Source: Gammaproteobacteria bacterium (lineage in GTDB: Bacteria > Pseudomonadota > Gammaproteobacteria > JAGOUN01). From it: DNA of 64,000 bases. The stretch lies in contig JBKAGM010000001.1 in NCBI GenBank assembly GCA_046290385.1, positions 1,026 to 65,025 on the forward strand. The letters run 5' to 3'. Positions within the stretch are counted from its first letter, which is position 1; the number at the start of each line of letters is the position of its first letter. The position numbers and the translations under genes were made by a program. Shown here piece by piece: positions 36,244 to 62,325 of the stretch. The notes under the pieces were generated by a model, which did not search any database, was not told the DNA's origin, and was given only the letters and a program-made list of their open reading frames with translations.

Positions 36244-36949
36244 TGTATTGCAGCATATAGGTGATAATAGTACATCTTTAGAAAAAGTTGTAGTAGTGAT
36301 CGATCAATATAGGGCTAGCTCTACTATTGTTACGGCGCTAGCTAATGGCGTTCAAAAAATAATACCATGTCTTTCGCTAGAGGAAGCGTTAGCAAAAAAA
36401 GCGCTTAGTGAATATAAAAATTTCTTAGTCTTGGGTGAGCAAAATGCTAGAAAATCAGAAAAGGCCTCACTAGGTAATTCACCTCTTCCATTCACTGTAA
36501 AAAATCACGGCATTAAAGAAATTTTAATGGCAACTACAAATGGAACAAAAGCATTGAAGCGCGCACAACATGCTCAAAAAATTATGTTGTGTAGCTTTTT
36601 AAATCTTTCCGCCATAGCAGAAAAGTTAATAAAATGTGATTCAGATTTTACAATTCTTTGTTCAGGCTCTAAAGGAAAGTTTTGTTTAGAAGATGTAATC
36701 TGCGCAAGCCTATTGATACAGCGTATTCAAAAAAAAGAAAGTTGTTTTTTTATAGATGATTTTACACGACTTGTTGCGGCATTAAATGAAGATCAGCAAT
36801 CTTTATTATGTGAAAGTAAATCATATAAGAAGTTAAAGAGTTTGGGATTTAATAGCGATTTAGACTTTTGTGATCAACAAGATTTGTATGAATCTGTACC
36901 GGTTTATTTAAAAACAGGTTTTATCAAGGAGTGTAAAAATGATAGGTAG
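36233..36949 (+). CDS. ComB-family (2-phosphosulfolactate phosphatase-like) phosphatase
   Basis: 238 aa; VVVIDQYRASSTI and LGNSP motifs match ComB-family signatures as recalled from memory. Confidence 0.5.
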   Translation: MKINVLQHIGDNSTSLEKVVVVIDQYRASSTIVTALANGVQKIIPCLSLEEALAKKALSEYKNFLVLGEQNARKSEKASLGNSPLPFTVKNHGIKEILMATTNGTKALKRAQHAQKIMLCSFLNLSAIAEKLIKCDSDFTILCSGSKGKFCLEDVICASLLIQRIQKKESCFFIDDFTRLVAALNEDQQSLLCESKSYKKLKSLGFNSDLDFCDQQDLYESVPVYLKTGFIKECKNDR

Positions 36950-38486
36950 ATTAAAAAATAAAAAACGAGAAGATGAAGTTCTGCTTTTAAGTGAAGGGCA
37001 AGGTGTAGAGGAGGATAGGGATCAGAATGATAGTAATGGAGAGTTAAGCGCCCATGGCATGTTTCTTGATTTAATTATTAATGGTTGGACTTTTAGCGCT
37101 GTTCGTATTCCTGATATGGCAGTAGAAATCATTGAGGGAGCTATTTTTTCCCGATTAGGACGAAATTATCTTGCAGCTGATGGTTTTATAGTTATAGAAC
37201 ATCGTGTATTTGCCACTACTGCATTAGGCGTTATTTTTGGTCTTGGTAATCTGCTAGATGAAGTAAAAGATGACTCTGTGCGACGTGGCCAAGTTTTTCG
37301 GCAAATATTTATTTTAGCGTTAGCTTTGAGTATCCCTGTCACCGCACTTTTAGCAATGAGCGAGCCAATTTTGATAGCACTTGGACAAAATAGAGATGTT
37401 GCTAAGATAACAGGTAATTTTTATATCGCTGCGCTAGTAAATACACCATTTTATATAGTTTTTTCTTCACTGCAACTATTATTCTTGACGTTGGGCCGTT
37501 CTGGTACTGGACTCAAGCTCAACTTTATCAACAATATTTTGAGTGTCATATTGAGCGGATTGCTTGCTCTTGGTTCAGGAAGCATTCCCCAGCTAAATGA
37601 ATGGGGAATGGGATTGGGTAGAAGTCTTTCGTCTATTATTATGGTGGGTGTAATTTCAATTGTACTCTACCGTGATAGTGTACAGCGAGAATCTCTCTTC
37701 AGCTGGACTCTTGGTGAAACTCAGTTTTTCCGCATGTTAAAACTAGGGCTGCCATATGGTGTTCAAGTTGGATCAGATTTTTTAATGCAATATGTGTTGG
37801 CGATATTGCTAGGTCGTATTGGAAAGAATGCATTAGCTGAAGCACGTGTTGCTGATATGGTCTATATGATTCCATTTGTGATGTTAGCTAGGTCGCCTCA
37901 AATCGTCGCGGCTCATGCTAGAACCGCAAAAGAAAATCAGAATCAAGGATATATAAAAAGATCAATGTTAATCAGCAGCTTAACTAATGGAGTGGCAGTG
38001 GGTATATGGATATTGATAACGAGTATTGGCGCAGATCCATTATTAAAGTATGTATTTGATTTGGATTCTCATAAAGAAAATGATTCCAAGATTATTTCTG
38101 GAGCTAAATTTTTAATGTTTATGACAGGGATTACTTTATTATCAGAGGTGGTTCGTTTTGTTTCAGGTTCTGTGCTTAGAGGGCTTGAAGACACAGTATC
38201 ACCTATGATTAATAGTATTGTTGTTCTTGATATCTTAGGGATAACCGTGCTGCTGACAGCTGCGCTGGGTTTTAATTTGGATGAAGAGGCGTTATATGGT
38301 ATTAGGGCAGCTATTATGTTTCTCGCATCTATGACGATTACAGCGTATGCAACACATATAGTAAAAGGGATACCACAGTTAAGCCAGTCAAATTATGCTA
38401 TCTGGAACGAAAATAATTTGGCTCCTTTAGTGTTAGAGAACGTAGTTGAAGATGATATAGAAGAAGGAGTTAAAAATGGTCAATAG
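36939..38486 (+). CDS. MATE-like polytopic efflux transporter
   Basis: 515 aa; ~12 TM helices in two halves; ~50-aa N-terminal cytoplasmic extension. Confidence 0.45.
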   Translation: MIGRLKNKKREDEVLLLSEGQGVEEDRDQNDSNGELSAHGMFLDLIINGWTFSAVRIPDMAVEIIEGAIFSRLGRNYLAADGFIVIEHRVFATTALGVIFGLGNLLDEVKDDSVRRGQVFRQIFILALALSIPVTALLAMSEPILIALGQNRDVAKITGNFYIAALVNTPFYIVFSSLQLLFLTLGRSGTGLKLNFINNILSVILSGLLALGSGSIPQLNEWGMGLGRSLSSIIMVGVISIVLYRDSVQRESLFSWTLGETQFFRMLKLGLPYGVQVGSDFLMQYVLAILLGRIGKNALAEARVADMVYMIPFVMLARSPQIVAAHARTAKENQNQGYIKRSMLISSLTNGVAVGIWILITSIGADPLLKYVFDLDSHKENDSKIISGAKFLMFMTGITLLSEVVRFVSGSVLRGLEDTVSPMINSIVVLDILGITVLLTAALGFNLDEEALYGIRAAIMFLASMTITAYATHIVKGIPQLSQSNYAIWNENNLAPLVLENVVEDDIEEGVKNGQ

Positions 38487-39204
38487 CTTGAAAGATAAAA
38501 AAATTGTCGTAATAGGTGGGAGTTCTGGTATTGGGTTTGAGACAGCAAAGTTATTTGCAGAATCGGGATCAAATGTTGTAATAGGTGGGCGAGATCAAGC
38601 AAAACTTAATCGTAAAAAAATAGAGCTAAGGGGAAACGTTGAAGCATTTTCAATTGATATTATGAATCTTGATTCTGTTCAGTTTTTTTTTGAGCGTGTT
38701 GGAAAATTTGATCACCTACATATTCCAGCAAGTAATATGAAGACCGGTAGTTTAAAAGATTTTGAAATTGCACTGGCAAGGCAATCTTTTGATAGTAAAT
38801 TTTGGGGTCCATATCAAGTTGCTAAAATAGCTTTGTCTTATTTATCTGACGTGGGCTCAATGACTTTTTTTTCTGGTGCGTATAGTCAGCGTCCTATTGC
38901 TTCAGGAGCTGCGATTGGATCAGCAATTAATAGTGCTATTGAAGGACTCGTTAGAGCTCTTGCGGTTGAATTGGCGCCTATTCGTGTTAATGCTATTTCA
39001 CCAGGACTTACAATGACTGAGCGATTTACTGAGAATTATTCACCAGAAGCACTAAAAGCATTAACAGAAAATTTTTCAGAGCACTTATTAATTAAGCGGC
39101 CAGCTGAATCAACAGAGGTTGCGTTAGCTGCTAAATATTTAACTGAGTGTTCTTATGTGACTGGTACAACATTATTTGTTGATGGTGGGTTGTCTTTACA
39201 TTGA
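38476..39204 (+). CDS. short-chain dehydrogenase/reductase
   Basis: IGGSSGIGFETAK Rossmann motif. Confidence 0.75.
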   Translation: MVNSLKDKKIVVIGGSSGIGFETAKLFAESGSNVVIGGRDQAKLNRKKIELRGNVEAFSIDIMNLDSVQFFFERVGKFDHLHIPASNMKTGSLKDFEIALARQSFDSKFWGPYQVAKIALSYLSDVGSMTFFSGAYSQRPIASGAAIGSAINSAIEGLVRALAVELAPIRVNAISPGLTMTERFTENYSPEALKALTENFSEHLLIKRPAESTEVALAAKYLTECSYVTGTTLFVDGGLSLH

Positions 39205-39210
39205 TGAAAA

Positions 39211-40047
39211 ATGAAGGGGAAAATTATGAAAAATAGTATAGTTATGAATGGTGGTACGCTTCAGCATTTATCTTTGATAAATGCTCTTAAGGTAACAAAG
39301 GATTCAGGTTATGATGGCTATGGTGTATGGTCAAACCAAATTTGCTCATCATTCGGCCATCATAATCAAGATGAATATTGTCAAATAATCATAGAAAGTG
39401 GGTTATCTATTCCTGAGATAATTTGGTTAAAGCCTTGGTTATATGTGAATGGTGAAGAGAAAAAGCAATCTATAAGTGATATTGAAAATCTATGCCAAGT
39501 TGCTAAGAAAATCAATGCTAGGATTATTACTGCACCAACTTATGGAGTATCGAATGATATTCAGTTAGCACAAAATAACTATAAAGATTTTTGTGATATT
39601 GCAGCCTGCTATGAATTAAAAGTTGGGTTGGAGTTTGTACCCATTTTTACTATTGATAGTTTGCTTTCAGCTTATGCATTGGTGCAAGCAGTAGATAGAA
39701 ATAATAGCGGAATCATTATTGATACTTTCCATGTTTTTAAAGGGAGCACTTCGCTAAGCGATATACAAAAAGTACCTGTTGAAAAAATGTTGTTGGTTCA
39801 TTTGTGTGATTTTAATGATGAAGATCCTTGTGGTGATATTCTATTTGAAGCTCGAAATAAGCGATTATCTCCAGGTAGAGGTGTATTTGATCTGCAGAGC
39901 TTTATTAGTGAAATGACAATACATGGTTATGAAGGATCATATTCGTTAGAAGTGTTGAATCAAAATAATCGCAATATAAATTCAGAAAGTTTTTCAATTA
40001 GTATCTTAAAGGATGCTAAAAATATTTTAGGTGTGAAAAGGAGATAG
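39211..40047 (+). CDS. xylose-isomerase-like TIM-barrel protein (sugar-phosphate isomerase/epimerase family)
   Basis: GLEF, DTFH and HLCD metal-ligand motifs. Confidence 0.65.
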   Translation: MKGKIMKNSIVMNGGTLQHLSLINALKVTKDSGYDGYGVWSNQICSSFGHHNQDEYCQIIIESGLSIPEIIWLKPWLYVNGEEKKQSISDIENLCQVAKKINARIITAPTYGVSNDIQLAQNNYKDFCDIAACYELKVGLEFVPIFTIDSLLSAYALVQAVDRNNSGIIIDTFHVFKGSTSLSDIQKVPVEKMLLVHLCDFNDEDPCGDILFEARNKRLSPGRGVFDLQSFISEMTIHGYEGSYSLEVLNQNNRNINSESFSISILKDAKNILGVKRR

Positions 40048-40051
40048 AAGC

Positions 40052-41695
40052 ATGAAAGAATTAGAGAATAAACAATTAGCTAAGCGTATTCGTGAGTCAA
40101 TTATTGAAACAGCTTCAGAAGGGGGATTTCATTTTTCTTCAAGTTTGGGTGTAGTAGAGCTCGTTATAGCTCTATACCGAGTATTTGATTTTGAGAAGAA
40201 TCAAGTTGTTTTCGATGTGGGGCATCAGCGATTTCCTTATTTAATGTTAAGAGATGGTCATTTCAATGTGCCTCACTATGAAGATTACAGCATGTTTATT
40301 TATCCTGGTTTTGCCGGGCTTTCGGCAGCATCAGCTGAAGGGCTATCAGTGAATGACCCTGAAAATAAAGTTATTGCTGTTATTGGAGACGGTTCACTGA
40401 CTTGTGGTGAAGTATTTGAATCATTAAATAACATTGGAGCTCATCAAAGTAATGTTTTGGTGGTGCTCAATGAAAATGGTCAATCGATTGTTGATAATGT
40501 TGGTGCACTTAGCGATGGAAAGTCTGTAAGGCAGTATGCGGAATCTTTAAAGTTTGAATATATAGGTACAGCGGATGGTCACAATACAGAACAGTTAGTT
40601 GAAATATTGGAAGGTCTCAAGCAAAAAAAGCATCCTGTGTTTTTGCATGTAATTACTCAAAAAGGTAAAGGTTATTTGCACTCTGAATCAAATCCAGCTT
40701 TATATCACCGTCCGACGACTTCATTTGATGTGCATACAGGTAAGATTTTGCCAAATCAAGATGTTGCAAAGGCAATGATGGGGGAATCGCTAGACATATT
40801 ACAGAAAAAAAGTTTAGCTATGTTAGAAAAAGGTGAAAGTTTATATTTAATCTCTCCTGCCTGTCCTTTATTTCCAAAAGTTGCAGAAAAATATCCTAAA
40901 AACGTTTTTGATACTGGGATCAGTGAACAGCATTGTATGACTTTTTCTACAACACTGGCAGCAAAAGGAAATAAGGTGATTTGTACAATCATAGCTCCAT
41001 TTTTATCGCGTTGTTATAGTCAAATTTTAGACCTTGCACATCAAAATGCACCATTAGTTATCTCTGTTCCTATGATGGGAGCAAATGCTCTTGGTTCAAC
41101 TCATCAAGCTGTGCATATGTTAGGCGCCCTGAGGCAAATTCCAAATTTATCAATTGTACATGCAATCAATATGAAAGAATATGAGATGTTGTTAGATGAG
41201 ATGTTGGAAGTCGGTAAGCCTGGTATTCTGTTTGTTCCTAAAGAGAATGTGCCATGTGAGGTGGTTGATAATTATGAATATGGGAAGGGGTTTATTTTAA
41301 GAGAAGGATACGCCGCAACGATATTGCCTATTGGCTCAATGTTTTCGATTGCAATTCAATTAGCAGAAAAATATGAGGGCATCGAAATTATTAACCCAAG
41401 GTACTTAAAACCATTGGATTTAGAATTGTTGTTTTCTAGTATTAAAAAAACTGGAAGGTTGTTAATTTTAGAGGATGGACTTAAAGTGGGTGGTTTAGGT
41501 GAAGAAGTAATATCGAAAATATTTGCGTCTATGCCGCATGTTCATTGCAAACATATTGGGTACACAAGCTTATTTCCTAAATATGAAGCATATGATAAAG
41601 CTATTAAAGAATATGATTTTTCATTCGTACGATGTATGAATACACTATCAGAGCTTTTGCAACTAGAAAAGCGAGGTTATCTCAAGTGTGCTTAA
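40052..41695 (+). CDS. DXS-like transketolase-family TPP enzyme
   Basis: GGFHFSSSLGVVEL...DVGHQ and IGDGSLTCGEVFESLNNIG...VLNENGQSI align closely with the 1-deoxy-D-xylulose-5-phosphate synthase signature regions. Confidence 0.8.
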   Translation: MKELENKQLAKRIRESIIETASEGGFHFSSSLGVVELVIALYRVFDFEKNQVVFDVGHQRFPYLMLRDGHFNVPHYEDYSMFIYPGFAGLSAASAEGLSVNDPENKVIAVIGDGSLTCGEVFESLNNIGAHQSNVLVVLNENGQSIVDNVGALSDGKSVRQYAESLKFEYIGTADGHNTEQLVEILEGLKQKKHPVFLHVITQKGKGYLHSESNPALYHRPTTSFDVHTGKILPNQDVAKAMMGESLDILQKKSLAMLEKGESLYLISPACPLFPKVAEKYPKNVFDTGISEQHCMTFSTTLAAKGNKVICTIIAPFLSRCYSQILDLAHQNAPLVISVPMMGANALGSTHQAVHMLGALRQIPNLSIVHAINMKEYEMLLDEMLEVGKPGILFVPKENVPCEVVDNYEYGKGFILREGYAATILPIGSMFSIAIQLAEKYEGIEIINPRYLKPLDLELLFSSIKKTGRLLILEDGLKVGGLGEEVISKIFASMPHVHCKHIGYTSLFPKYEAYDKAIKEYDFSFVRCMNTLSELLQLEKRGYLKCA

Positions 41696-41717
41696 GTTAA
41701 TATAAGGAGAAGTATAT

Positions 41718-42938
41718 ATGAAAATTAAAATAAAATTTAAAAAAACGTCAATAATGGTTTTATTATTTTTCGTTCCATTTTTGATGGGGATGGGCGTGGA
41801 TTTATATGTCCCTTCATTGCCAGCTATCGCTATATTTTATCAAACTGATCCACATTGGGTACAATTAACAATAGGTCTTTACATGTTGGGCTATGGAGTT
41901 GGGCAGCTTTTTCTTGGGGTTCTTTCAGATAGTTTAGGACGTAAGAAAATAATGTTGATGAGTGGTATTTCATATGTCATTATTAGTTATGTTGCGAGTG
42001 TTTCGCCTGAGGTTTGGTTTTTAAATCTAGCGCGATTTATTCAAGGTTTTGGTATTGCTGGATTGGGAGTTGCTGTTCGTGCTGTTGCAAGTGATTGTTT
42101 TAATGATCTAGATTTAACAAAAGCATTAACATGCTTTTCCATGAGTTGGGCTTTAGGCCCAATTATAGGACCATTTTTAGGAAGTTATTTACAACATTTC
42201 TTTGGCTGGAAGGCAAATTTTTATTTTTTCGCTATCTATGGTGCAATTATTACATTTTATATTGTGCTCTTTATACCTGAGACAATTGAAACGAGGCATC
42301 CATTACATCTTAAAATACTTTATAATAGTGCTAAGGTAATATGTAAAAATAAAACTTTTATTGCTGCATCGCTAATTGCTTCTTTAGTTTATTCAGTTTT
42401 AGTCTTATTTAATGTCGTTGGCCCATTTTTAATTCAGAAGGTGCTTCATTATACAGTTATCGACTATGGTCGTTTTGCGCTGATTCTTGGTGTTGCCTAC
42501 TTTTTGGGTAATTTTAGTAATCGGATATTGGTTAATTACTGTAGTCCTGTACGAATAGTATATATTACTCTATTGTTGAGCTTGGTTATATCTATAGCAA
42601 TGTTACTTTTAGCATTGATAGTAGGGTCTTGCATCGTTGTTGTATTGGCTCCAGTCTTCTCGATTTTTTACTTATCAGCAATGATGTTGCCTAATATGGT
42701 TTCAAAATCAGTTGGAATGTTTCCCAAGCAAGGAGGGACTGCAAATGCTATTTGTGGGACAGTCGTCGCATTAGGTGTATTTATCATGTCTAGTTTTGCC
42801 AGCAGTTTAAAAATACACTCACAAATGCCACTAGCGATTATGTATATGGTTATCCTATTTGCTTCACTGATGATATTTTCAGTGTATATCAAAAAAAATG
42901 ATTCTGTCAAAACTCAGTGCGCTCGACTCAATCTTTAA
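41718..42938 (+). CDS. MFS drug-efflux-type transporter (Bcr/CflA-like); its 3' end runs into an IS inverted repeat
   Basis: 406 aa; 12 TM; the last ~12 codons and the stop lie within the IS6 terminal repeat at 42903-42920. Confidence 0.75.
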   Translation: MKIKIKFKKTSIMVLLFFVPFLMGMGVDLYVPSLPAIAIFYQTDPHWVQLTIGLYMLGYGVGQLFLGVLSDSLGRKKIMLMSGISYVIISYVASVSPEVWFLNLARFIQGFGIAGLGVAVRAVASDCFNDLDLTKALTCFSMSWALGPIIGPFLGSYLQHFFGWKANFYFFAIYGAIITFYIVLFIPETIETRHPLHLKILYNSAKVICKNKTFIAASLIASLVYSVLVLFNVVGPFLIQKVLHYTVIDYGRFALILGVAYFLGNFSNRILVNYCSPVRIVYITLLLSLVISIAMLLLALIVGSCIVVVLAPVFSIFYLSAMMLPNMVSKSVGMFPKQGGTANAICGTVVALGVFIMSSFASSLKIHSQMPLAIMYMVILFASLMIFSVYIKKNDSVKTQCARLNL

Positions 42939-43578
42939 GTGCTTGAACTTGATTTAGTTTTTTGTGGTAAATAGTTCGTTAAAATTTTGAATTTTAGACA
43001 TGAGTCTTCTGTGACGTTTAGCGCGTGTTTTATTTTTTATTAGAAGTAATTGTCATATTCTTCGAATGTCGTACAAAATATTAATACACTAAAATCGCTC
43101 TGTAGAAATAACACCGAAGATCATCAATACGTAAATACGTTGCATCAATATGCCATTTGTTCCGAGAAAACCCTTTGCGTTTTGCGCGACATTTTAACCC
43201 TAACTCAACACCAAACGTTTGGGTCCAGTTATGGATCGTTTGATGACTCATATGAAATCGGCGCATTATTATGAGCTCTACCACATCATCCTGGCTGACT
43301 TTAAACCGATAATAGTAATGAATAGCGATCATTACCATTTCGGCAGGATGCTTGATAAAATTCAGTGGGGCGCAGCTACGTTCATTAAACTGCCTACCGC
43401 TCAGTCTGAACAACGATATTGCAATTAGCCTAACCCCGTTGAGTAATTCCAGACGTCTTTTTTGAGTTTCAATGAGCACAGTTCATAGGTTTTTTCTCCA
43501 ACATCTTTATTTGTGATTATATTCTTATAAGCAACACGCTACAAATTACAATGTTAGACTGAGTTTTGACTAAGCCAG
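42903..43578 (-). mobile_element. IS6-family insertion sequence remnant (copy B, internally deleted)
   Basis: IRs ttctgtcaaaactcagtgc (42903-42920) and gagttttgactaagcc (43561-43576). The transposase N-terminus and part of the core (43081-43479) are in one frame with no frameshift. Confidence 0.65.
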
Positions 43579-43988
43579 TAAATCTACATGTAGTAATACA
43601 TTAGCGCCTATGAAAATAATTATCATTCGTTAGTAACAAATTAAAATCATGTGAAGTTACTCACAAATAAAAAAGAACGTAAACTATTTTCAGGAAGTTA
43701 TAAGTTAATTCGTTGAACTTGACATAAGATTATTCAATTTCATACTGGTTTCCAGCAAGATTGCTTGCAATAAATAAGCATGCTTTTTTTTGATCAGAGA
43801 TGTCAGTTGATTAAACCGAGTTAACCAGCCCGATTTCTCCAAGGGGTATATACGTAGTATTTACTTATTGATGGTTTTAATGAATATCCCGTATATTTAT
43901 ATCCTAAAACTTTTTCCTTTTTTGGAAGTAGACTCAATATTAGTAAAAATTCAAATTTTTTTGAATAAAGATTTAAGGGTAAAATGCC

Positions 43989-45497
43989 ATGAAAAAATCG
44001 GATAAAAAGAAGTTTATCGCACTTGCAGAAATTGATAGTCTTCGAATGGGAATTGGTCGTGGAAAAGTATGGTATGTTCCTTCATTTCCCGATGATCCTT
44101 CGAGTGTTAGTGAATTTAGTTACGAGGATATGCAACTAAGACAAAAAGAGAGCGAATTTTATGAAAATAATAATGATGCCATTCATTTTGAAAGTGCTTA
44201 CCAAAATACAAAAAGACTATTAAAGCTGAATGATTTAAATCTCAATAATAGAGATCACGTAAGAATGCTAGAAAGTAATTTAAACTATGTGAGAGGTGGT
44301 ATTGATGAGGTTGAAGATATCGAGCATGCCTTTAAAATACTCTCTGATAGATCTGATGAACTAAAGTTACCTAAAAAACTTATTAACTCTGCTTCAGAAC
44401 TTTGGCCGACGGATACTATTTATTCAAGATTATTTTTTCTTTTTGCTGACGAAGGTTTGAGTGGATTACAAGATAAAATACAGGAGCAGGAAATTCAAGA
44501 ATGGAATGCTTTTCTAGCTAAGTTTGAGGGAAATAAGGATGCGTTAAAAAATTTACTTTTGGATAGTAACTTTTCTCCAAAGCCAGAAATGCAGGCTCTC
44601 TTGAATAGATTTCTGATCAAACAAGGTTATGCTAGTGATGCAGAATTATCAGCATTTGTTGAATCAATGTGTGGATCCATACAAGAATTTCGAGCGATTC
44701 AAAAAACCCAAGAAAAAATCATACAAAAGTGTTCCAATATAACTCAAAAACTTGAGCAAAAACACGAACATAAATTAGATGCAAACAAGAGGGCTCAAAT
44801 GTGGCAGGATGCAAGAAATATAGCTTCAAACTTACATAGTATTGGTGTCGCAACAGGTAATCGTCAATTGGCTAGGATAGGCGCAGTAGCGCAATCAGGT
44901 ATTGATGCGGCATTAATAACAAGTAAAATCACCAAGACATTATCTGGCAACAATTTAGGTCCTGCAGAGTACTTGTCAGCAGCTTCTTCAGGTATTGGTC
45001 TTGTATTGATAGGGTTGCAATTGGTAGGAATGTTTTCTGACCCTAAACCTGATCCAGCTATTGAAATGTTGAATGTGCTATTCACACAAATTCAACGAAA
45101 TCATGTTGAAGTAATGAATCGATTAAATATTTTAGAAGAAAATCAAATTCTTATTTATACAAAAATTAATAAAATACTTTTTGAAATAAAAGTAAATCAT
45201 ATAGAAATGAAAGCATATGCAAGAACAAGATTTGATCAAACAGATAATAAGTTAGATATACTTACATCTCTTGTTGATAATGGATTTAGAACATCATATT
45301 TAAATAAAATTGATGTCTTGCATGACAATATAGAAAGATATTCAGGTAAAAACACATTTTATTCCAGCCAAACAAGAGAAAGTTATTTTGATAAAAATCA
45401 TATTTTATTTAACTATCTGACTATTCCCGAGAAAGGAGCATCTAATTTAAGAAAAATAAGCTATTTAAATGGTTATACTGTCGCATCGTTATTTTAA
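43989..45497 (+). CDS. hypothetical protein, candidate secreted effector
   Basis: 502 aa; no recognisable motif; coiled-coil-like stretches and one hydrophobic segment; AT-rich codon usage. Confidence 0.4.
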   Translation: MKKSDKKKFIALAEIDSLRMGIGRGKVWYVPSFPDDPSSVSEFSYEDMQLRQKESEFYENNNDAIHFESAYQNTKRLLKLNDLNLNNRDHVRMLESNLNYVRGGIDEVEDIEHAFKILSDRSDELKLPKKLINSASELWPTDTIYSRLFFLFADEGLSGLQDKIQEQEIQEWNAFLAKFEGNKDALKNLLLDSNFSPKPEMQALLNRFLIKQGYASDAELSAFVESMCGSIQEFRAIQKTQEKIIQKCSNITQKLEQKHEHKLDANKRAQMWQDARNIASNLHSIGVATGNRQLARIGAVAQSGIDAALITSKITKTLSGNNLGPAEYLSAASSGIGLVLIGLQLVGMFSDPKPDPAIEMLNVLFTQIQRNHVEVMNRLNILEENQILIYTKINKILFEIKVNHIEMKAYARTRFDQTDNKLDILTSLVDNGFRTSYLNKIDVLHDNIERYSGKNTFYSSQTRESYFDKNHILFNYLTIPEKGASNLRKISYLNGYTVASLF

Positions 45498-45509
45498 TTT
45501 AAAAACGGA

Positions 45510-47660
45510 TTGAAGAATGTTGAATCCACTAATTTATTGAACGCTTACTTGTCATTATGTAACTATGATGAATTACTTGCTTTGCTTGGGGTCGTTGCAA
45601 GATCTTTTAACATACACTATAAAAGAGCATGCGCTTTAGAGACGGTCATGAATTTGCCGATTTGGATGAGAACAGTAGATGATCTTGAGAAGTATCGTAT
45701 AGAAGGTATATATTTTAATTATCATGATGGACATGGGAGTTCTTATAGCCGAGAGCAATTTGAGGAAACTAGAAAATATAAAAACCAGGCTATTGCACAC
45801 GTGCAATCATTGTATAATGTTAGAACGGGTATAATTGATTCACTTTTAAATGAATATTTTAGGATAATGCTTAAACTGGAGGAAGCCTGGGATTCTGTAA
45901 GTCGATATAAAAATAAACTATTCTTTAATTCTAAGAGTGTTAAAACTGAAAATACAAAACTCTTTAGTGTTCAAGGTGTTATTGCTGATATACTTAAAAA
46001 AAATAAGCTTGCTTTGGACGACGTTAAAGGTAGGATTGTCATTCTTGTGAAAAATACGGAAGTGGACCTTAATCAAGGAAGAACAAGATATAAATTTACC
46101 GAAGAAATAAAGCCTTTTTTTGCTCACTTAGTAAAGCGAGCTGAATTAAAACCTTATTTACTAACAGAAATGCTCAGTAAGGGGAGTTTAAGTTTTAAAA
46201 TAACAATACGCCCTAACTTTTATCATGCTCACCTTGGTGAGAGTTGCGCTCTTGCAGCGACGGCAAGTGTTTATGTGGACCTGGAATTTAATGGTAGAAG
46301 TATAGCGCGCTATTTCCCCGGCGTTGAAAACTTTATCAGTATAACTGACGAAGGGAACTATTTAACATGCTTGGGAGACAGAGAACTTGGGAGGGTTCAT
46401 TCCCATGATGCACCGGAAGGCTACCGTGGGGAGTTAGGGTTATATCATCGTACATGTTCTGCTGGAATGGATGACTCGAGAGGCTACCATCCAGTTAAGC
46501 AAAACGATTTGATGGTTAAACAGATCAAAAATAAAATTTTAAAGCCTAAGTGGCTTTCAAGGCGGCAGAATTATTATTTTGCAACACCGACTGATTGGAA
46601 TTTTGATCGTATGTTTGACGCTTTCATTGATTCGGAAAGACTCATCAAGGCTAATCAAAATAAATTACGCATAGGTTGTTCCCACAGTATTAATCCATTT
46701 TTTAACTTCCCTATATGTTTCGAATTATTTGATTTAAAAAAAACAAATAAAAAAATTAAAAATCGCCTCACCTCAAATTTAAATACATTACCTATTAATC
46801 TTGAAAATCATGATTATTCTAAATTACGAACTGATACTTTAGCGAAACTCAGAAGTGTCAAGCTGGATCCTGCTATGGCTTATAGATTCTTGTTTGAACG
46901 CTTTAAAAAACAAAAGCTGGAAGCTATAGGAATGTTTATTCAAAAATTAGAAGATGTAGGAGAGCTTTTTCCTTTACTTGAAAAGCTAGATACCGTTTAT
47001 TGGCTGTTGAAGCACTATATCAAGCTTTTTGGGTTAGATGATAACTTCATTGAAAAGCACCCTGAAAATTATCTTCGCATGGCATGTCTTCAATTCGATC
47101 GTGGCGCTGAAAAAACGGATCACTTATCCTGGATTAAGTGTCGAAGTGATAATCTAACTTTTTATAATAAAAAAAGATTTATAAAAAAAATGAAAGACAA
47201 AATAAAGTATTTAAAAAATTATCATTATAAGAAAAAAATTGATTTGTCGCTTGGCGACTTAGTAGATGAACAATTGAAACACGATTTAGGAAAGAAATAT
47301 AAATCTGAGGTTATAAAATTTAATGCGACTGTTAATGAGCATAAAATGACTAATAAAAATAATGAGTTTCTTAAAAGTTTGCACCGCGGTGGCTTAGCAT
47401 TAACTAGAACGGAACAACGTATCCAACTTTATATTGATAATTTAGCTACGAAGCAGCATTTATCCAATATTCATGATAATCTTCATTGTGATGGCCCTGT
47501 TGAGGAATGTTCTTCCTCGACAGGAAACTGTCTTGATGTGGATGGCAGGCCTTATTGTGCGATGTCTAATAGTGCAAGTGGATCAATGTTTAAACTTCCA
47601 AGACTTACCTTTAAATTTTATGAGGATAGCTATATTAAACTTAAAGTTTTTGGTGATTAA
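45510..47660 (+). CDS. hypothetical protein, candidate secreted effector
   Basis: 716 aa; no recognisable motif; 12 bp downstream of the previous ORF; K/N-rich. Confidence 0.4.
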   Translation: MKNVESTNLLNAYLSLCNYDELLALLGVVARSFNIHYKRACALETVMNLPIWMRTVDDLEKYRIEGIYFNYHDGHGSSYSREQFEETRKYKNQAIAHVQSLYNVRTGIIDSLLNEYFRIMLKLEEAWDSVSRYKNKLFFNSKSVKTENTKLFSVQGVIADILKKNKLALDDVKGRIVILVKNTEVDLNQGRTRYKFTEEIKPFFAHLVKRAELKPYLLTEMLSKGSLSFKITIRPNFYHAHLGESCALAATASVYVDLEFNGRSIARYFPGVENFISITDEGNYLTCLGDRELGRVHSHDAPEGYRGELGLYHRTCSAGMDDSRGYHPVKQNDLMVKQIKNKILKPKWLSRRQNYYFATPTDWNFDRMFDAFIDSERLIKANQNKLRIGCSHSINPFFNFPICFELFDLKKTNKKIKNRLTSNLNTLPINLENHDYSKLRTDTLAKLRSVKLDPAMAYRFLFERFKKQKLEAIGMFIQKLEDVGELFPLLEKLDTVYWLLKHYIKLFGLDDNFIEKHPENYLRMACLQFDRGAEKTDHLSWIKCRSDNLTFYNKKRFIKKMKDKIKYLKNYHYKKKIDLSLGDLVDEQLKHDLGKKYKSEVIKFNATVNEHKMTNKNNEFLKSLHRGGLALTRTEQRIQLYIDNLATKQHLSNIHDNLHCDGPVEECSSSTGNCLDVDGRPYCAMSNSASGSMFKLPRLTFKFYEDSYIKLKVFGD

Positions 47661-47687
47661 ACAGCGACAATTGTAAACAGACCTATC

Positions 47688-48143
47688 ATGCAATTAATAA
47701 ATCCGTTTTTACAAACAATTGATTTGACTCAATCTCTACTTCAGCAAGAAACTAAGTCATTTAGTAAAGATGAAGAAGAGTTCATTTGTGTTGTTGATAA
47801 TGGAGAAAATACCTTTGATGATATCAACCTTTGCCAAAAAAATGATGCGTCAAGCATCGCACCATTAGGTGCACTTGGAAAATCATTTGAAAGATCATTT
47901 AATCAATGGCGACTGCCTAACTATTCAGGAGATTTTAATAGTCAACTGGCTTTATTTGCTGTGATATTTCATTTATTTAAAAAAATGTATCACTCAATTT
48001 TTGGTTTTAGTGACTTTGATAATAAAGCCAAAGAAGAAGTGTACTTTTTTTCAAACTTTGGGGTGGGATTTTTTGATGTCCCAAAACAACAAAATGATCA
48101 GCAATCATTAAGCGCCAATACATTTAATTTACAAATTAAATAG
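47688..48143 (+). CDS. hypothetical protein
   Basis: 151-aa ORF directly downstream; no motif. Confidence 0.3.
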   Translation: MQLINPFLQTIDLTQSLLQQETKSFSKDEEEFICVVDNGENTFDDINLCQKNDASSIAPLGALGKSFERSFNQWRLPNYSGDFNSQLALFAVIFHLFKKMYHSIFGFSDFDNKAKEEVYFFSNFGVGFFDVPKQQNDQQSLSANTFNLQIK

Positions 48144-48224: not shown

Positions 48225-48509
48225 TTGTTATTGAACTCACTTATAAAAATATATTACCAGAAGTTGATGAACATGTTTAAGCACACCGTGCATTCTTACA
48301 AAAAATATTATGATGAAAATATTTTTATTACTACTGGGGCTAAAATTCTCCCTCAAGGAAGTATTATTATGGCCAATACAGATTTGAGAACAGCTAATGA
48401 AATTGTAAAGCAGGATCCATTTTACCAGAATGAAATAGAGGATTATCGATTTATAGAATTTAATGCTGATCGGTATGTTCGCGAGCTGGCAGGAAAACTT
48501 AAAAAGTAA
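48225..48509 (+). CDS. YciI-like small protein
   Basis: 94 aa; DPF...IEF pattern resembles the YciI family; weak. Confidence 0.35.
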   Translation: MLLNSLIKIYYQKLMNMFKHTVHSYKKYYDENIFITTGAKILPQGSIIMANTDLRTANEIVKQDPFYQNEIEDYRFIEFNADRYVRELAGKLKK

Positions 48510-49839: not shown

Positions 49840-50205
49840 ATGAGAATATTAGCCACAAAATCATTTGCTAAATGGTTGAAAAAACAAAAGGTTACAATAA
49901 CTGCCTTGCAGGAAGCAGCAAATGAGGTAGTTCATGATAAATATGATGCGGATTTGGGTGGCCATATTCTAAAAAAACGACTGGGTTTCCAAGGTAGAGG
50001 AAAACGAGGAGGGTTGAGAACAATCTTGTTTTATAAACAAAACAATAGGCTTATTTTTCTGTATGGGTTTAAGAAGAATGAAAAAGCGAATATCTCGAAT
50101 ACGGAATTGGAAGCGTTTAAGGTATTTGGAAAAATCTTAAAAAATATGACAGACAGTGAAGTTGTGACGGCAATTAAATTGAAAAATTTTGTGGAGTTAA
50201 AGTAA
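49840..50205 (+). CDS. RelE/ParE-superfamily toxin (HigB-like, toxin-first arrangement)
   Basis: 121-aa basic protein just upstream of an XRE-HTH partner with a 1-nt overlap. Confidence 0.55.
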   Translation: MRILATKSFAKWLKKQKVTITALQEAANEVVHDKYDADLGGHILKKRLGFQGRGKRGGLRTILFYKQNNRLIFLYGFKKNEKANISNTELEAFKVFGKILKNMTDSEVVTAIKLKNFVELK

Positions 50206-50510
50206 TGAGAAACACAATGAAAAATGCTATTTTAGATACTGTGAATGATCTTCATAAGCAAGGTGTTGTGGATGATTTGACCTTACGTGAAATGGAGGCA
50301 CTATGCTTACCAAAGTTAAAAGCTTATTCACCAACCGCAATCAAACGCATTCGTAGAAAGTTACGATTAAGTCAAGCAGCGCTTGCTAAATTTTTAAACA
50401 CTAGTGTGTCTACTATTCAAAAATGGGAAACAGGCGCTAAAAAACCTTCTGCCATTGCAGTAAAATTGCTGAATATAGCGGATGATAAAGGCATTGAGGG
50501 ATTAATTTAG
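50205..50510 (+). CDS. XRE-family HTH antitoxin (HigA-like)
   Basis: HTH LRLSQAALAKFLNTSVSTIQKWETG. Confidence 0.65.
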   Translation: MRNTMKNAILDTVNDLHKQGVVDDLTLREMEALCLPKLKAYSPTAIKRIRRKLRLSQAALAKFLNTSVSTIQKWETGAKKPSAIAVKLLNIADDKGIEGLI

Positions 50511-50580
50511 TTTTCATTAAATTTTCTATATTCTGCTTTGATGTTACCAGTAATTTTCCTTACTGGATGTTAGACAAACT

Positions 50581-51018
50581 TCAGACTGAGTGTACGATTC
50601 CTATATGTAGCTTTTGTCCTAATATATTTAACGCATATTCAATGCGTGGAAATTTTGAAGTATAATCAGGATCAAGTAATCGACGAACTTCTTTTTCATC
50701 ACAATTGAGCTTTTTAGCTAATGCAACGTTAGTTAACTTCTTATTTCGCATCGTAATATATAATGCCGCCTTGGCCGCTAGGGTAGCGGGCAGGGCAATT
50801 AAAACCCCACTTTTTTTCGCTTTACTTGGTTTTGGGATGGCAAGCTTCATGGCCATACGGTTTGCAACGGCTTCTTCTAGACAGTCCTGAGCTTCGTGGA
50901 TTGCTTCTTGTTTATTATTGCCTTGCGTAATCGCCTCTGGAAAATTAGGGAAGCGTACCAAATATCCGCCTTCCTTCTGCTTTGCTAACTTAATAGGATA
51001 ATCAAAATATCTGTTCAT
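50581..51018 (-). CDS. hicB: HicB-family antitoxin, orphan
   Basis: Starts at MNRYFDYPIKL...GGYLVRFPNFPEA..QG....EA (UPF0150/HicB N-domain) plus a C-terminal DNA-binding region. The longer track ORF (50581-51222) extends an upstream frame that has no HicB homology. Confidence 0.6.
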   Translation of the reverse strand: MNRYFDYPIKLAKQKEGGYLVRFPNFPEAITQGNNKQEAIHEAQDCLEEAVANRMAMKLAIPKPSKAKKSGVLIALPATLAAKAALYITMRNKKLTNVALAKKLNCDEKEVRRLLDPDYTSKFPRIEYALNILGQKLHIGIVHSV

Positions 51019-51306
51019 GCCATGTCGCCTTAACTCTTTTTTAATACCTAAAAAGATTATCGAACCATTTTGACCGAATATCAACAACGACGCTCTTTCA
51101 ATGCAAGAGGAATTTGAAAAGGAGTATACTGCATAAATAACAGAAAATATCGGATAAGCTGGACCCGTTGCTGAGCTTGGTTGGCGCCAACTCCAAAATG
51201 AGCCAAAAACCGCCATGGGCAATCCTAGCGTACTGATTTTAATTAGATAAAATTGCTATTTTTTTGTAATTATTAGATTTTTCAGCTTTAATAAATATCT
51301 TTCATG

Positions 51307-51335
51307 TTGACAAACTGTTGGTTATAAACTACAAT
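51307..51335 (+). promoter_or_regulatory. sigma70 promoter of the second toxin-antitoxin pair
   Basis: TTGACA (51307-51312), N17, TACAAT (51330-51335), 23 nt upstream of the ATG at 51359. Confidence 0.5.
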
Positions 51336-51358
51336 ATCAACTATGTAAAAGGACACTC

Positions 51359-51685
51359 ATGAAGTACTTGAGATTATATAGAACGAGAAATGGAAAAGAA
51401 CCATTTGTTGAATGGGCGAGCTCTCTGAAAGATCATGTTGCCGTAGCACAAGTAAATAATAGAGTGCGTCGTTTGACTCTCGGGCAACGTGGTGACTGTA
51501 AGCGCGTGGGTAAGGGTGTTTTCGAATTACGTATTCACTATAGCCCAGGGTATCGTGTTTATTTTGCAGAACACGGTAAAGAAATTGTCATTTTGTTACT
51601 CGGTGGCCATAAAGGTTCGCAAAAACGCGATATAAAACAAGCTGTCGATTACTGGCATGATTATAAGGAGCGATACAATGAGTAA
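51359..51685 (+). CDS. RelE/ParE-family addiction-module killer protein (HigB/Gp49-like)
   Basis: 108 aa; the pattern ...GKGVFELRIHYSPGYRVYF is typical of the killer-protein family. Confidence 0.7.
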   Translation: MKYLRLYRTRNGKEPFVEWASSLKDHVAVAQVNNRVRRLTLGQRGDCKRVGKGVFELRIHYSPGYRVYFAEHGKEIVILLLGGHKGSQKRDIKQAVDYWHDYKERYNE

Positions 51686-52007
51686 AGTCAATGTGAAAAA
51701 GAGTCGTCAAATTACAGGTGATTATGTAAGTTGGTTACATACAACACTTCAAGAAAAAGAATCCGCATGTGCGCATATTCAAGTCGCTTTGGATGCCTAC
51801 CAAAAAGATGGTAATAAAAAGGCGCTTTTATTGGCATTGAAAGATGTGGCGGAAGCCCAAGGAGGTATAGGGTGGCTTGCGAAAGAAACGCATCTTAACC
51901 GAGAACATCTTTATTACTTATTATCTGGAAAAGGGAATCCACGGCTTGATACACTCAGCCTTATTTTTAAAGCGTTTGGATTTCACTTAAATATAGCTGT
52001 TTGTTAA
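51678..52007 (+). CDS. addiction-module antidote protein (HigA-family HTH)
   Basis: 109 aa from MSKVNV; 8-nt overlap with the toxin; the C-terminal NPRLDTLSLIFKAFGF pattern is typical of the family. Confidence 0.7.
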   Translation: MSKVNVKKSRQITGDYVSWLHTTLQEKESACAHIQVALDAYQKDGNKKALLLALKDVAEAQGGIGWLAKETHLNREHLYYLLSGKGNPRLDTLSLIFKAFGFHLNIAVC

Positions 52008-52227
52008 TTTAATTTTCCAAGTATCGTTAAGAAGATTTTAGAAAGACTCACGAGCGAGGTTCGTTCAAAACAAGGCTGGGAAGACTGTAAGAAGAAAAAA
52101 CGGCTTAATGGTTTGATATCTCACAGCATATGTTTACTAAATACACCAGCCTCATCTGCAAGTGAATTTAAGATGGATAGTTAAATAACATGCCAAAAAA
52201 ATCAAAAAGGGCCTCATATAAGTACTT

Positions 52228-52318
52228 GGTTAAATCTATCGGAACCATGAAAAACGGACACGTCGCACCGTAACTCTTTGTAATAACTAATAATTTCCGT
52301 CTTGATAATTTTTACACA
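52228..52318. repeat. left terminal inverted repeat of the Tn3-family element
   Basis: reverse complement matches 58044-58134 with 2 mismatches. Confidence 0.7.
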
Positions 52319-52364
52319 CATTAATTTTTTATTCTTAAAATCAATAACTTACAAGCGCTTTATT

Positions 52365-55300
52365 TCAGCCAAAATCTACCCTTTCTCTCCAGTTCCATTG
52401 GTTAATTATTTTCTCAATCACACGGTCATTGTGTTTGCCACAGAATTGGTAGTACCCCAGTAAATTAATATGACTCCAAGCACCAGGAGAGACCTTCACT
52501 AAAAAGTCTTTTTCCGATTGACTGGTTGAGTTTTCATAAAGCGTATTCAAAATGTGGGTATTGTAATACAAAATAATTGATGAAATTAGGCGGGTACACT
52601 GGTGCCATATTTCCATCTCAATTTCACTCTTACCCCTTAATTCGCCTTTGCGTAACAAGGTAATAGCTTGATACAAACGGTTGTAAGCTTCACCTCGATT
52701 AAGCGCGATCATGATGGCACGCCTGAATTTTGGGTTGTGAATGTAATTCAATAAAAACTCTGAGCGTACAATGTGGTTGTATTGTGTGAATGCTGTTTTC
52801 ATGTCACTGCGATAATTATTTGACGATAGCTTACCTATAATAATATTTGGTAATGCATCGCCTGTGAGTAATGACACAATCATGTGTTGAATGGGATCCC
52901 ATTGCTGATAAAACCTTTCAGGCTTAATGAATTTTGAAGGTTTAACAATATAGCCATCATAATCCTTAGGTGAACCAAATCCCCAGAATATTTCATTGTG
53001 AGGTTTAGGAATGCGAGGAGCAAAAGTTAAATCCGTTAAATCGAACAAAGCAAAGTTTAGTGCGTTGCAGCCATGTTTATCTGTTGAAAGTATTGAAGGT
53101 TTGACTTCTGAGGTATTTTGATGATGTACCATTTCAAATGTAAAATTTCCTTCATATTCATTGGTGCCAATGAGTCTCCCTGAAAGTGAAAATAAATTAA
53201 GAATCTCATTGTAGGCAGAGACACCAGCACCTTGACCAAAAAATTTCTGTGACCGGCGTGATTTGACGTTTCTAAATTGACTTTCAATTTTCATACCATC
53301 CAAACTGCCGTGCATTAGGCCGTCAATGTATTGCTCCTTGGCAATAGGTAACTCAAACGCGGCATTGTTAATCATATCAATAGCCGGCAAGAGCGTTTCT
53401 GTACGGAAGTAAGCGGCTTCTGCCGTTTGCAACGCTGATTCTGGAAGATCTGACATATCGGCCATTTTCTCTTTACCTGCTCGGATAGCATTCGCTAATG
53501 CTAAGCCCATAATCAGTTCATCGTCATACTCAGTTTTTGAGTATTTAGGCAATATTGACTCAAAGGCGTGAGTAAATGGGATTTTATGGCGCACAAATTG
53601 CATCACATCGACAATGCTGCGTGGCTGAAAGTGCGAGAAAAAAGCTTTATTGGGATCAGGTAAAGATTCAACTTTTACAAGACGCCAGCTTTGATTTCCT
53701 TGAGCGTCTTTTTCAATAGTAACATCAGGGTTCTCGTCGTTTAGGATGCTATGGTTAACCACGCGGTAAAGCTCATTTAACGTGCGTTCTTTTTGCTGTA
53801 AAGTATTTCGAGGTGATTTTTTGAGCTTGTCATAACCCAATCCTTTGATCAGTTTTGATTTTTCTTTAGCCCATTTTTTATCGTTGATATAATCATCCTC
53901 GATTCGCTTATGCTTAATACTGTGTTTTAAAGTTAGCTTATTAGTGCTGACATGATGCACCATACGTTGATAAAGTAGAAACTCCAATCGATGGAAGATC
54001 AATTTATTTTGGCAAAATAGATAGGGCAGGGTATCTTTACCAACCCACGTCTCTAAAGAGCGGTGGAGTGACTGATCTAAGGTTTTTGATGAAAGTAAGG
54101 CTGTCTCGACAAAGTCTACTATTTCTTGCAGAGTCGGATTATTGGTAACGATAAAATCAATGGTCAAAAAAAGTGGGCGAATATTTAGCGCAATGGCTTC
54201 TTTGTTTAAATCAACGTACTTCCAAAATAAAATATCTTGATCAAGATCTTCATTCACCAACAATTGCGCAGCTATTATCAAGTCCTCTTCATCAACGTGT
54301 TGATACAAAATGTTTCTTGGTACGTATTTTGGATGAGGATACTCTTTAATGGCCATTAGCATATTGCTGACTTTTTGCCGTGTTTCTTTGATGAGGCTGA
54401 ATTGCTTTAACACTTGCTCCTTTGCATACGTGTTTCCATGAGTGACATAATCATTGACACGCTTTTTAAACGCATCAAGCAAATTGTCATTGAGCAACTG
54501 AAATTTAGTAAAACTGTAGCAAAGTAAATAAAGCTGTGATAATTCTGGTTTTAATTGTTTTAATCTCGGACCATTATAAAATTGCACCATGTTGGCATAA
54601 TAATGGATGGTTGCAGTGGGCAAATTAAGTCTAGGTAATACTTCAATGGCTAAAAGAAATAGGGACTTTAGTTTTTCATGCTTTTTCAGTTCATTACCAA
54701 GCTCCCTAGTGGTAAAGCTTTTCATATCTTGCTTAATGCTGATGATATGGTGTTGGTTTGATGCTTTAGCCAAAAGTGAGGAAATATTCTCTCGATCTAA
54801 GGCGCTTGAGTAACGCCTAAATAGCCGTAAAATACGTTGGTGCTCTATATTCCATTGCTCAATAACGATTGCTTGTAGTGAGCTGTAGGAGGGAATAGCA
54901 ACGCGCTGTTTTATTAGTAGGTCAAGTAATGATTTGCAAAGCTGCCGTTGTCGCGGTTTATTAGGCGCTTCTTTTCTCAATGCTAACACTATTTTTTCCA
55001 ATGCAGCACCACGACAGCGATGATAGTTGCATAGTGTTAATATCTTAGTTTTTATGCGAGAAACGGCTTTATCATTCTTCAGAAATGCCCTGGGAAAACG
55101 TTGATTTGGAAAATAACGATCCATCACATGTTGACGCTCTTGTGTTACTTCACGATAGCTAAAATTAATAAATGTTTTTTTAAGCTTGAAGAAAACTAAG
55201 CTAATCGCAAAATAGACCGCATTCTCAATTGATTGAAAACGTTTTAATTCTGCTATTTCATCCTTGTTAAATGTAAAATATTCTCTACGTTCAGCGTCAT

Positions 55301-55445: not shown

Positions 55446-55570
55446 ATCTGTGTTATCATAACAAAAACAGTGCAAGCACGCTTGCACAATTAAGGAATTT
55501 ACAAAACAAGCTATTTCGCAACCCATATGGGTTCGCACACAGTATGTTTTTATTCACAAGGTGGCTATTT

Positions 55571-56671: not shown

Positions 56672-56689
56672 TAAGGAGGATATACTGCG

Positions 56690-57988: not shown

Positions 57989-58043
57989 TTTTGGTCGCCA
58001 GGTGGATCTTGTAACCTATTGATTTTCAAAAGAAAAATCAATC

Positions 58044-58134
58044 TGTGTAAAAATTATCAGGACGGAAATTATTAGTTATTACAAAGGGTTACGGTGCGAC
58101 GTGTCCGTTTTTCATGGTTCCGATAGATTTAACC
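58044..58134. repeat. right terminal inverted repeat of the Tn3-family element
   Basis: see left IR. Confidence 0.7.
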
Positions 58135-58286
58135 TACTAGGTTTATCGCCAGGTGCATGGATTCATGTGAATCTACTTGGCTATTACCAGTTCACTGGCG
58201 AGGGATCGTACGAATACATTGAGCGTTGGATTCAGCATTGGCACTACGAGGAGCATACAGGTTTTGTTGAAAAATATAGAACGTAA
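58135..58286 (+). pseudogene. relic C-terminal fragment of a second, diverged Tn3-family tnpA
   Basis: LLGLSPGAWIHVNLLGYYQFTG resembles the C-terminus of the intact TnpA. The 5' part of the track ORF (58101-58134) is a translation of the IR. A degenerate IR-like sequence follows at ~58330-58370. Confidence 0.5.
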
Positions 58287-62307: not shown

Positions 62308-62325
62308 GTATCTTTCCCTTGCATA

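Follow-up and report, generated by a model that had tools for sequence, protein, structure and literature searches.

Three adjacent open reading frames in a gammaproteobacterial contig as the probable remains of one gene of a two-member orphan family

Introduction

Do the three adjacent open reading frames (ORFs) found at positions 43989–48143 of a gammaproteobacterial contig encode three proteins, or are they the pieces of one gene? The DNA analysed here, 64,000 nucleotides of Gammaproteobacteria bacterium (GenBank assembly GCA_046290385.1, contig JBKAGM010000001.1, positions 1,026 to 65,025 of the forward strand), is called the window below, and all coordinates refer to it. In a preliminary description, made from the sequence alone, the ORFs had been taken for three tandem hypothetical proteins, either candidate effectors of a type IV secretion system (T4SS) or members of a novel two-component system. 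The present analysis points to pieces of one gene: the ORFs are colinear with a single protein of 1,344 amino acids encoded elsewhere in the genome of the same uncultured marine bacterium (ACE365_02825, referred to as the paralogue), and it is likely that they represent one gene, interrupted by nonsense codons and probably a recent pseudogene, of an orphan family with two members. This arrangement of one probable gene with in-frame TAA codons lends no support to a novel two-component system. For the annotation this would mean that ACE365_00245, ACE365_00250 and ACE365_00255 are one interrupted gene related to ACE365_02825, and not an operon or a multi-component system.

Reading frame and colinearity with the paralogue

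The locus is composed of the following features, all of them on the forward strand:

43989–45497 (sense codons 43989–45494), +, ORF1 or segment 1, annotated as ACE365_00245; 502 amino acids, ATG start, mostly helical
45495–45497, +, first in-frame TAA, inside a stretch aligned gap-free to the paralogue
45498–47657, +, segment 2; 720 open codons
45510–47660, +, ORF2; 716 amino acids, TTG start
47511–47828, +, indel segment of 106 codons (318 bp) not present in the paralogue; holds the second TAA together with the start codon of ORF3
47658–47660, +, second in-frame TAA, inside the 106-codon indel
47688–48143 (sense codons 47688–48140), +, ORF3 or segment 3, annotated as ACE365_00255; 151 amino acids, ATG start
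47829–48140, +, C-terminal module; 104 codons, 91% identical to residues 1241–1344 of the paralogue
48141–48143, +, TAG, the native stop; the last residue before it corresponds to the C-terminus of the paralogue (...NLQIK)

The previously described lengths of 502, 716 and 151 amino acids and the gaps of 12 and 27 bp were reproduced. A single reading frame is common to all three ORFs, which are separated by one TAA each, so that straight translation of 43989–48143 gives 1,384 sense codons interrupted by two TAA codons only; in a six-frame scan, the open segments between the stops amounted to 504, 720 and 160 codons.

The paralogue was retrieved by an exhaustive phmmer search of 1.84 billion (1.84e9) cluster representatives with ORF2 as the query, which returned two proteins: ORF2 itself, in a form of 670 amino acids starting from ATG 45648, and a protein of 1,344 amino acids (P0010; E = 3.7e-144). 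By exact look-up the latter was identified as MFN3234335.1 (ACE365_02825), a hypothetical protein from another contig (54 kb) of the same metagenome-assembled genome (MAG). It has no internal stops and lacks the segment corresponding to 47511–47828. The identity to its residues 1–518 is 32–35% for ORF1 (BLASTP, MAFFT), and ORF2 together with the 12-bp spacer is 38% identical to residues 523–1240, the last 104 residues of ORF3 being the counterpart of the remainder. The read-through product and the paralogue coincide in their first residues and both end in ...NLQIK; ORF1 corresponds to the N-terminal portion of the ancestral gene, its start codon being aligned with residue 1 of the paralogue.

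The first TAA is crossed without a gap, ...LNGYTVASLF*FKNGLKNVEST in the window being aligned with ...LNGYYLAKDSNLQDGLQAINAPS in the paralogue; in a longer view the same junction reads ...LNGYTVASLF*FKNGLKNVESTNLLNAYLS against ...LNGYYLAKDSNLQDGLQAINAPSVLNDYLS. When the paralogue was compared with the locus by tblastn, one high-scoring segment pair joined its residues 1–1250 to 43989–47540 and thereby spanned the first TAA, and a further pair covering the tail was found in the same frame. No tblastn matches of the paralogue to the locus were obtained in other frames, and frameshifts are therefore absent. Within the body of the protein, the identity between the two copies ranges from about 25 to 59% per block of 50 columns and has its minimum of 24% in columns 501–550, around the first stop.

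At the second TAA the comparison is of a different kind. The indel is flanked by the homologous sequences ...HCDGxVEEC and L(C/W)Q..DASSIAP and is itself coding-like in the shared frame; no second copy of it was found in the window. For the second TAA two origins can be considered: it could be a nonsense mutation that arose in a variable segment, or an old gene boundary that was removed in the lineage of the paralogue by an in-frame deletion of 318 bp, a choice that two sequences cannot decide.

Coding signal and start sites

With a codon-usage model trained on the clear genes of the window, the log-likelihood remained above zero in the shared frame across both junctions, where it was below zero in the two other frames. 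The interruption is therefore young, or else the pieces are still in use, since the coding signal has been preserved and no frameshift has occurred. The GC content of the ORF region is 29–36%, in agreement with the AT-richness described before.

A Shine–Dalgarno-like TAAGG is situated 10 nt 5' of the start of ORF1, and Shine–Dalgarno sequences are present at about two thirds of the clear genes of the window; none was found before TTG 45510 or ATG 45648 of ORF2 or before the ATG of ORF3. Both ACE365_00250, as annotated by the Prokaryotic Genome Annotation Pipeline (PGAP; 670 amino acids), and the gene model from the Logan assembly start ORF2 at ATG 45648. The 150 nt that are left "intergenic" by these two models (45498–45647) are aligned with residues 523–572 of the paralogue, including the block LLxLLGVVAxSF. 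A transcript start in the AT-rich region at about 43700–43980, as proposed earlier, cannot be claimed, promoter-like sites upstream of ORF1 being fewer (18) than expected in shuffled sequence (26.8). No Rfam elements were found.

Verification of the stop codons

The DNA originates from a non-axenic culture of Skeletonema tropicum that had been kept in the laboratory since 2013, and sequencing was performed with Illumina and QitanTech Nanopore instruments, the assemblies being polished with Illumina reads (PMC9872673, PMC11984218). An Illumina-only contig of the Logan assembly of SRR22269038 (L001) is exactly identical to the window over 33989–47944, including both TAA codons. TAA is not reassigned, because other genes of the window terminate normally and are matched by Pfam over their full length.

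C-terminal module and gene conversion

A hydrophobic helix (LALFAVIFHLF) lies in the C-terminal module, which also has a polar tail rich in Gln, Asn and Ser (PKQQNDQQSLSANTFNLQIK). From the values given above for the body blocks, the identity to the paralogue rises to 86–100% over the last 104 columns. The Logan assembly breaks within this tail, its graph branching at 47915–47944: contig L001 ends there, and a second contig (L002) begins at 47915 with a 30-nt (k-1) overlap with L001. Compared with the window, L002 shows two base differences only: at 47946, C>A turns the Leu codon CTG into ATG (Met), and at 47954, A>C turns the Leu codon TTA into TTC (Phe). The two substitutions yield the residues of the paralogue (NSQMAFF), and downstream of them L002 is identical to the window's own sequence. 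L002 is thus slightly chimeric owing to the near-identical repeat: it starts with the variant bases of the paralogue and continues as the window.

These contigs provide indirect evidence at the DNA level that the tail of the paralogue is locally identical to that of the window except at two non-synonymous sites, which is a signature of gene conversion. Near-identical tail DNA together with the jump in identity indicates recent exchange and not old constraint; judged from the sequences, the last 104 codons were probably homogenised recently between the two copies by gene conversion.

Alternative explanations

If the reading as one interrupted gene is correct, an ancestral gene of about 1,384 codons would have been broken in frame by the TAA at 45495, and efficient synthesis from the window copy would be limited to the first 502 residues, without the core and the C-terminal module. 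The window copy would be a pseudogene of recent origin or, in the most favourable case, a gene that was split recently. Several observations weigh against this reading. The pattern of a shared frame with single stops does not go beyond chance, as seen in the six-frame scan, in ORF3 and the adjacent YCII-like ORF, and in a pair of genuine genes encoding an HlyD-like protein and AcrB (59098–63483, minus strand), which lie in the same frame with one TAA and 18 nt between them and serve as a natural control. Because the same-frame pattern also separates genuine genes, the case for one gene rests on colinearity with the paralogue. Continuity at the second TAA is not demonstrated, as this stop lies in the 106-codon indel, and an ATG occurs nine codons past it, likewise within the indel, so ORF3 could be a separate gene. 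With two sequences only, the direction of change is not provable and the paralogue could be a fusion of separate genes; the two copies belong to one genome only if the MAG was binned correctly. Two nonsense codons with zero frameshifts in 4.1 kb are also expected under continued selection. As to function, the searches against protein families and the Protein Data Bank (PDB) were all negative, and AlphaFold gave mean predicted local distance difference test (pLDDT) values of 34–38.

Four other explanations were weighed; the degrees of confidence attached to the readings in this work need not sum to one, and the readings partly overlap. One is a functional fission, in which the pieces would be made separately by re-initiation at TTG 45510 and ATG 47688 and would cooperate as subunits. 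The starts do lie 12 and 27 nt past the stops, frameshifts are absent and the coding signal is intact across 4.1 kb, and the lowest identity of the body, at the first stop, suggests an interdomain linker, the second stop being placed in a variable segment. Fission is nevertheless judged unlikely: neither downstream start has a Shine–Dalgarno sequence and the first of them is a TTG, the intact paralogue shows a single-chain protein, and the surroundings are full of degraded genes (fragments of insertion sequences (IS), the truncated YCII-like gene). Reversing the direction of change, so that the three-gene state is ancestral and ACE365_02825 is a fusion derived by loss of the first stop and the 318-bp in-frame deletion, costs the same number of mutations when two sequences are compared, and a deletion in the paralogue is mechanistically easier than an insertion of 318 bp of unique coding-like DNA. 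Such a fusion would, however, require two independent events in one gene; moreover, ORF2 and ORF3 have no ribosome-binding sites, and the 12-nt spacer and the 46 codons before the first ATG are aligned gap-free to coding sequence of the paralogue. It is accordingly regarded as very unlikely.

That the three ORFs are separate tandem proteins, either substrates of the T4SS of this island or parts of a novel multi-component system, is held to be highly improbable. A virB4–B11 operon is present in the window, the proteins have neither a signal peptide nor known domains, and the C-terminal module, which is shared with the paralogue, has a polar tail rich in Gln and Ser with hydrophobic residues at -4 and -2. 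Against these points, the ORFs are fragments of one gene; the system is VirB-type and 28 kb off, with unrelated genes between; the tail lacks an E-block and an Arg-rich motif and matches neither BID nor XVIPCD; and ORF1 and ORF2 would be without the C-terminal module, the usual seat of T4SS signals. Hardly any weight is given, finally, to the TAA codons being errors of sequencing or polishing, or sites of programmed read-through. The MAG does come from a Nanopore/Illumina hybrid assembly, but the independent Illumina-only assembly is identical at both stops, and Nanopore errors are mostly indels, of which there are none here. Recoding is opposed by the normal use of TAA in the window, by TAA being the codon of neither selenocysteine nor pyrrolysine and by the lack of an Rfam element.

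The YCII-like ORF named above (48225–48509, TTG start) is in the frame of ORF3 and separated from it by the TAG of ORF3 only. It matches positions 25–95 of the 95 positions of the Pfam model and may be another truncated gene. It lies outside the large gene, because the paralogue terminates at the stop of ORF3.

Distribution of the family

In the exhaustive phmmer search, no relative of the ORF2 part other than the paralogue was found among the 1.84e9 representatives. Searches with narrow patterns in GTDB species genomes, JGI metagenomes and viral contigs gave no relatives, nor did megablast and tblastn searches of plasmids and phages. The N-terminal part and the tail were searched with less sensitive word-index and pattern tools, which missed the paralogue: with ORF3 the word-index search returned only ORF3 itself, despite the 91%-identical tail of the paralogue, and the ORF1 profile likewise returned only itself, so that these are weak negatives. 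Orphan status is consequently firm for the central 716 amino acids and provisional for the remainder. With two members among approximately 15 billion predicted proteins, the family is a clean case of a genuine orphan family. One of its copies would have been caught soon after inactivation, and the C-termini would have evolved in concert; no new mechanism is revealed.

Protein features and structure searches

Two further features of the body were located from hydropathy and from the alignment with the paralogue:

44841–45044, +, Gly-rich hydrophobic helical hairpin, residues about 285–352, strongest at 327–352 (Kyte–Doolittle and alignment)
46020–46673, +, best-conserved core, 50% identical to the paralogue; invariant residues include His, Cys, Asp and Glu

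No other segment of the body is strongly hydrophobic, and the hairpin is kept in the paralogue (residues 311–370). The core contains motifs such as NFYxAHxGExC, LTCLGD and ELGLYHRxC; it is predicted to be beta-rich, on the secondary structure of a low-confidence model, and is a candidate catalytic or binding domain. Also common to both copies are the HCDGxVEEC motif, long helices and an N-terminal (V/I)PS(F/L)PDDPSS, which stands between KF...EID and E..FY (43989–44165; residues 1–59 of the paralogue). Neither copy has an N-terminal signal peptide.

The earlier statement that no enzymatic motif is recognisable held in the searches: no match of ORF1, ORF2 or ORF3 beyond chance level was obtained with Pfam, NCBIfam, PADLOC or PHROGs. 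The PDB sequences gave no match beyond chance for the window ORFs or the core, and for the tail only chance matches to norovirus capsids. No C-terminal domain was matched when ORF3 and the paralogue were compared with Pfam at E <= 1. AlphaFold2 models, calculated from two-row alignments, were unusable (mean pLDDT 34 for ORF2 and 38 for ORF1).

Three apparent similarities were rejected. The N-terminal 58 residues matched a domain of staphylococcal protein A with E = 2e-7 but with only 9–12 bits per domain (independent E 0.5–8); the total score is inflated because the engineered construct carries tandem repeats, and the sub-significant resemblance of the N-terminal (V/I)PS(F/L)PDDPSS segment to the three-helix domain of protein A (...IQSLKDDPSQS...) was judged to be due to chance. 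Residues 213–453 of the paralogue, which consist of long helices and the hydrophobic hairpin and in this respect resemble the stalk and paddle of the bacterial dynamin-like LeoA and of mitofusin, faintly matched PADLOC LeoA (E = 0.0018, 15 bits) and Pfam Fzo_mitofusin (E = 0.13). Walker A and GTPase motifs are absent from both copies, and ORF1 of the window gives no match; the scores are far under significance and typical of coiled-coil composition. A BLAST sub-match suggested that the helical regions at the N- and C-terminal ends had arisen by internal duplication, to which hhalign gave a probability of 2%. Among the PADLOC models of anti-phage defence, no window ORF was matched, and the paralogue matched only LeoA, below significance.

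We tentatively suggest, with low confidence, that the intact family is a large protein without signal peptide that is exported by a one-step system and delivered to a membrane, the C-terminal module being recognised for export. Such a protein would be composed of a helical N-terminal region, a membrane-inserting hairpin, the Cys/His-containing, beta-rich core and the shared C-terminal module.

Relation to type IV secretion

The idea of a T4SS effector is neither refuted nor supported and is treated here as a conjecture on circumstantial grounds. The only point in its favour is the 104-residue C-terminal module, near-identical between otherwise very divergent copies. The ORFs had been described as part of an island with a T4SS; a virB4-B5-B6-B8-B9-B10-B11 operon of the VirB/Trb type (type IVA) is indeed present at 7.3–16.0 kb, but it is located about 28 kb from the ORFs, and transporters, a LuxR-type regulator and an eleven-gene, biosynthetic-looking cluster of unrelated metabolic genes lie between. 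The VirB4 protein of the window has at most 34% identity to any plasmid copy. Among the window ORFs scanned, neither a coupling protein (VirD4/TraG) nor a relaxase was seen. No Dot/Icm genes were found in the window, the one IcmG/DotF match (14 bits against a cutoff of 200) being noise.

Effectors of the Dot/Icm systems of Legionella and Coxiella are large, lineage-restricted, encoded by AT-rich genes and devoid of a signal peptide; some have hydrophobic hairpins, and they form families of paralogues with frequent pseudogenisation. Their signal combines residues that are small and polar with an E-block at about -10 to -17 and a hydrophobic residue at -3/-4. The search for a C-terminal signal that had been advised for the ORFs gave a divided result. 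The tail resembles these effectors in being polar, with small residues and a hydrophobic residue (Leu) at -4, and differs from them in having no E-block, just as the window has no Dot/Icm genes. The last 30 residues contain neither Glu nor Arg and have a net charge of 0, the acidic residues being two Asp (-15 and -22). Substrates of the Agrobacterium-type VirB/D4 system and the Bep proteins of Bartonella are unlike the present proteins, which have neither an Arg-rich C-terminus nor a BID domain; Pfam gave no BID match for the ORFs or the paralogue.

The closest analogy is the XVIPCD of the X-Tfe effectors of bacteria-killing VirB/D4 T4SSs. This C-terminal domain of about 120 amino acids, for which the structure from XAC2609 has been reported, is marked by His315, Asp363-His-Val, Phe375-x-Val-Gln-Gly, Pro384 and Arg388 (XAC2609 numbering) and is followed by a Gln-rich tail of 26–42 residues with Arg and no acidic residue among the last six; the X-Tfe families include small proteins consisting of the module only as well as truncated or inactivated copies (PMC8740702). 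The likeness lies in a conserved C-terminal module of about 100–120 residues on otherwise divergent proteins, in a polar, Gln-rich tail whose last six residues (FNLQIK) are free of acidic residues, and in the VirB-type T4SS of the window; ORF3 resembles the module-only proteins, and the window copy resembles the truncated ones. Membership nevertheless fails. On inspection against the published definition (PMC8740702), the DHV and FxVQG...P...R positions are missing here, Lys stands in place of Arg among the last six residues, and 19 residues follow FGVGFFDVP instead of 26–42. Moreover, the module gives no Pfam or PDB sequence match, although the PDB should include the XVIPCD of XAC2609, and it occurs on two proteins only. 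No cognate immunity gene was recognisable beside the ORFs, which are preceded by an IS fragment and followed by YCII-like and DUF6194 genes.

By this analogy, the 104-residue module (47829–48140) might be an undescribed domain for recognition in export or translocation, XVIPCD-like in function and kept near-identical by gene conversion for the sake of one shared receptor. The family would then comprise new large, membrane-targeting effectors in a diatom-associated gammaproteobacterium, and ORF3 would be a stand-alone, module-only gene similar to the small XVIPCD-only proteins of Xanthomonas. We regard this proposal as distinctly doubtful. Were the C-terminal module a secretion signal, it would offer a handle for finding effectors in little-studied alga-associated bacteria.

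Genomic neighbourhood

The neighbouring elements with assigned positions are:

42903–43583, degenerate IS6/IS240-like fragment upstream of ORF1; diverged copies at 26.6–27.1 and 28.7–29.1 kb
49840–50510, RelE/ParE toxin and helix-turn-helix antitoxin
50581–51222, -, HicB-like antitoxin
51359–52007, Gp49-like toxin and HI1420-type antidote
52365–55538, -, TnpA
55544–56671, YhcG/DUF1016 PDDEXK nuclease
56690–57988, tyrosine recombinase

The ORFs are located, as had been noted, between an IS copy and a block of toxin–antitoxin and Tn3 genes, the upstream IS being a degenerate fragment. They are followed by the YCII-like and DUF6194 genes, three toxin–antitoxin-like pairs and a Tn3-family element. 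The toxin–antitoxin units stand back to back (49840–52007). The Tn3-family unit extends over 52216–58146 and is bounded by inverted repeats of 114 nt that are 92% complementary; the HlyD-like membrane-fusion and AcrB genes (59098–63483, minus strand) lie beyond it.

The eleven genes of the biosynthetic-looking cluster are on the same strand (29896–42938, plus strand), and the cluster is flanked by IS fragments (26624–27100, 28666–29149 and 42903–43583), the IS6/IS240-like copies having diverged to 83–95%. The first ORF of the cluster (29896–30786) had no Pfam match. The other genes encode a GH3-family adenylating enzyme, an alpha/beta hydrolase, an enolase-superfamily enzyme, a thiamine pyrophosphate-dependent decarboxylase-like enzyme and a ComB-type 2-phosphosulfolactate phosphatase, together with a MatE exporter, an SDR protein, a xylose-isomerase-like TIM barrel, a DXS-like transketolase and an MFS exporter. 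It is possible that the cluster is mobile and encodes a pathway for a sulfonated or phosphonate-like metabolite. Upstream of it, the most AT-rich stretch of the window (27000–29000, GC content 27–29%) holds a gene for a LuxR/GerE-type regulator (27677–28480), which is placed between inverted IS fragments (26937–27093 and 28666–28822) that are 95% complementary.

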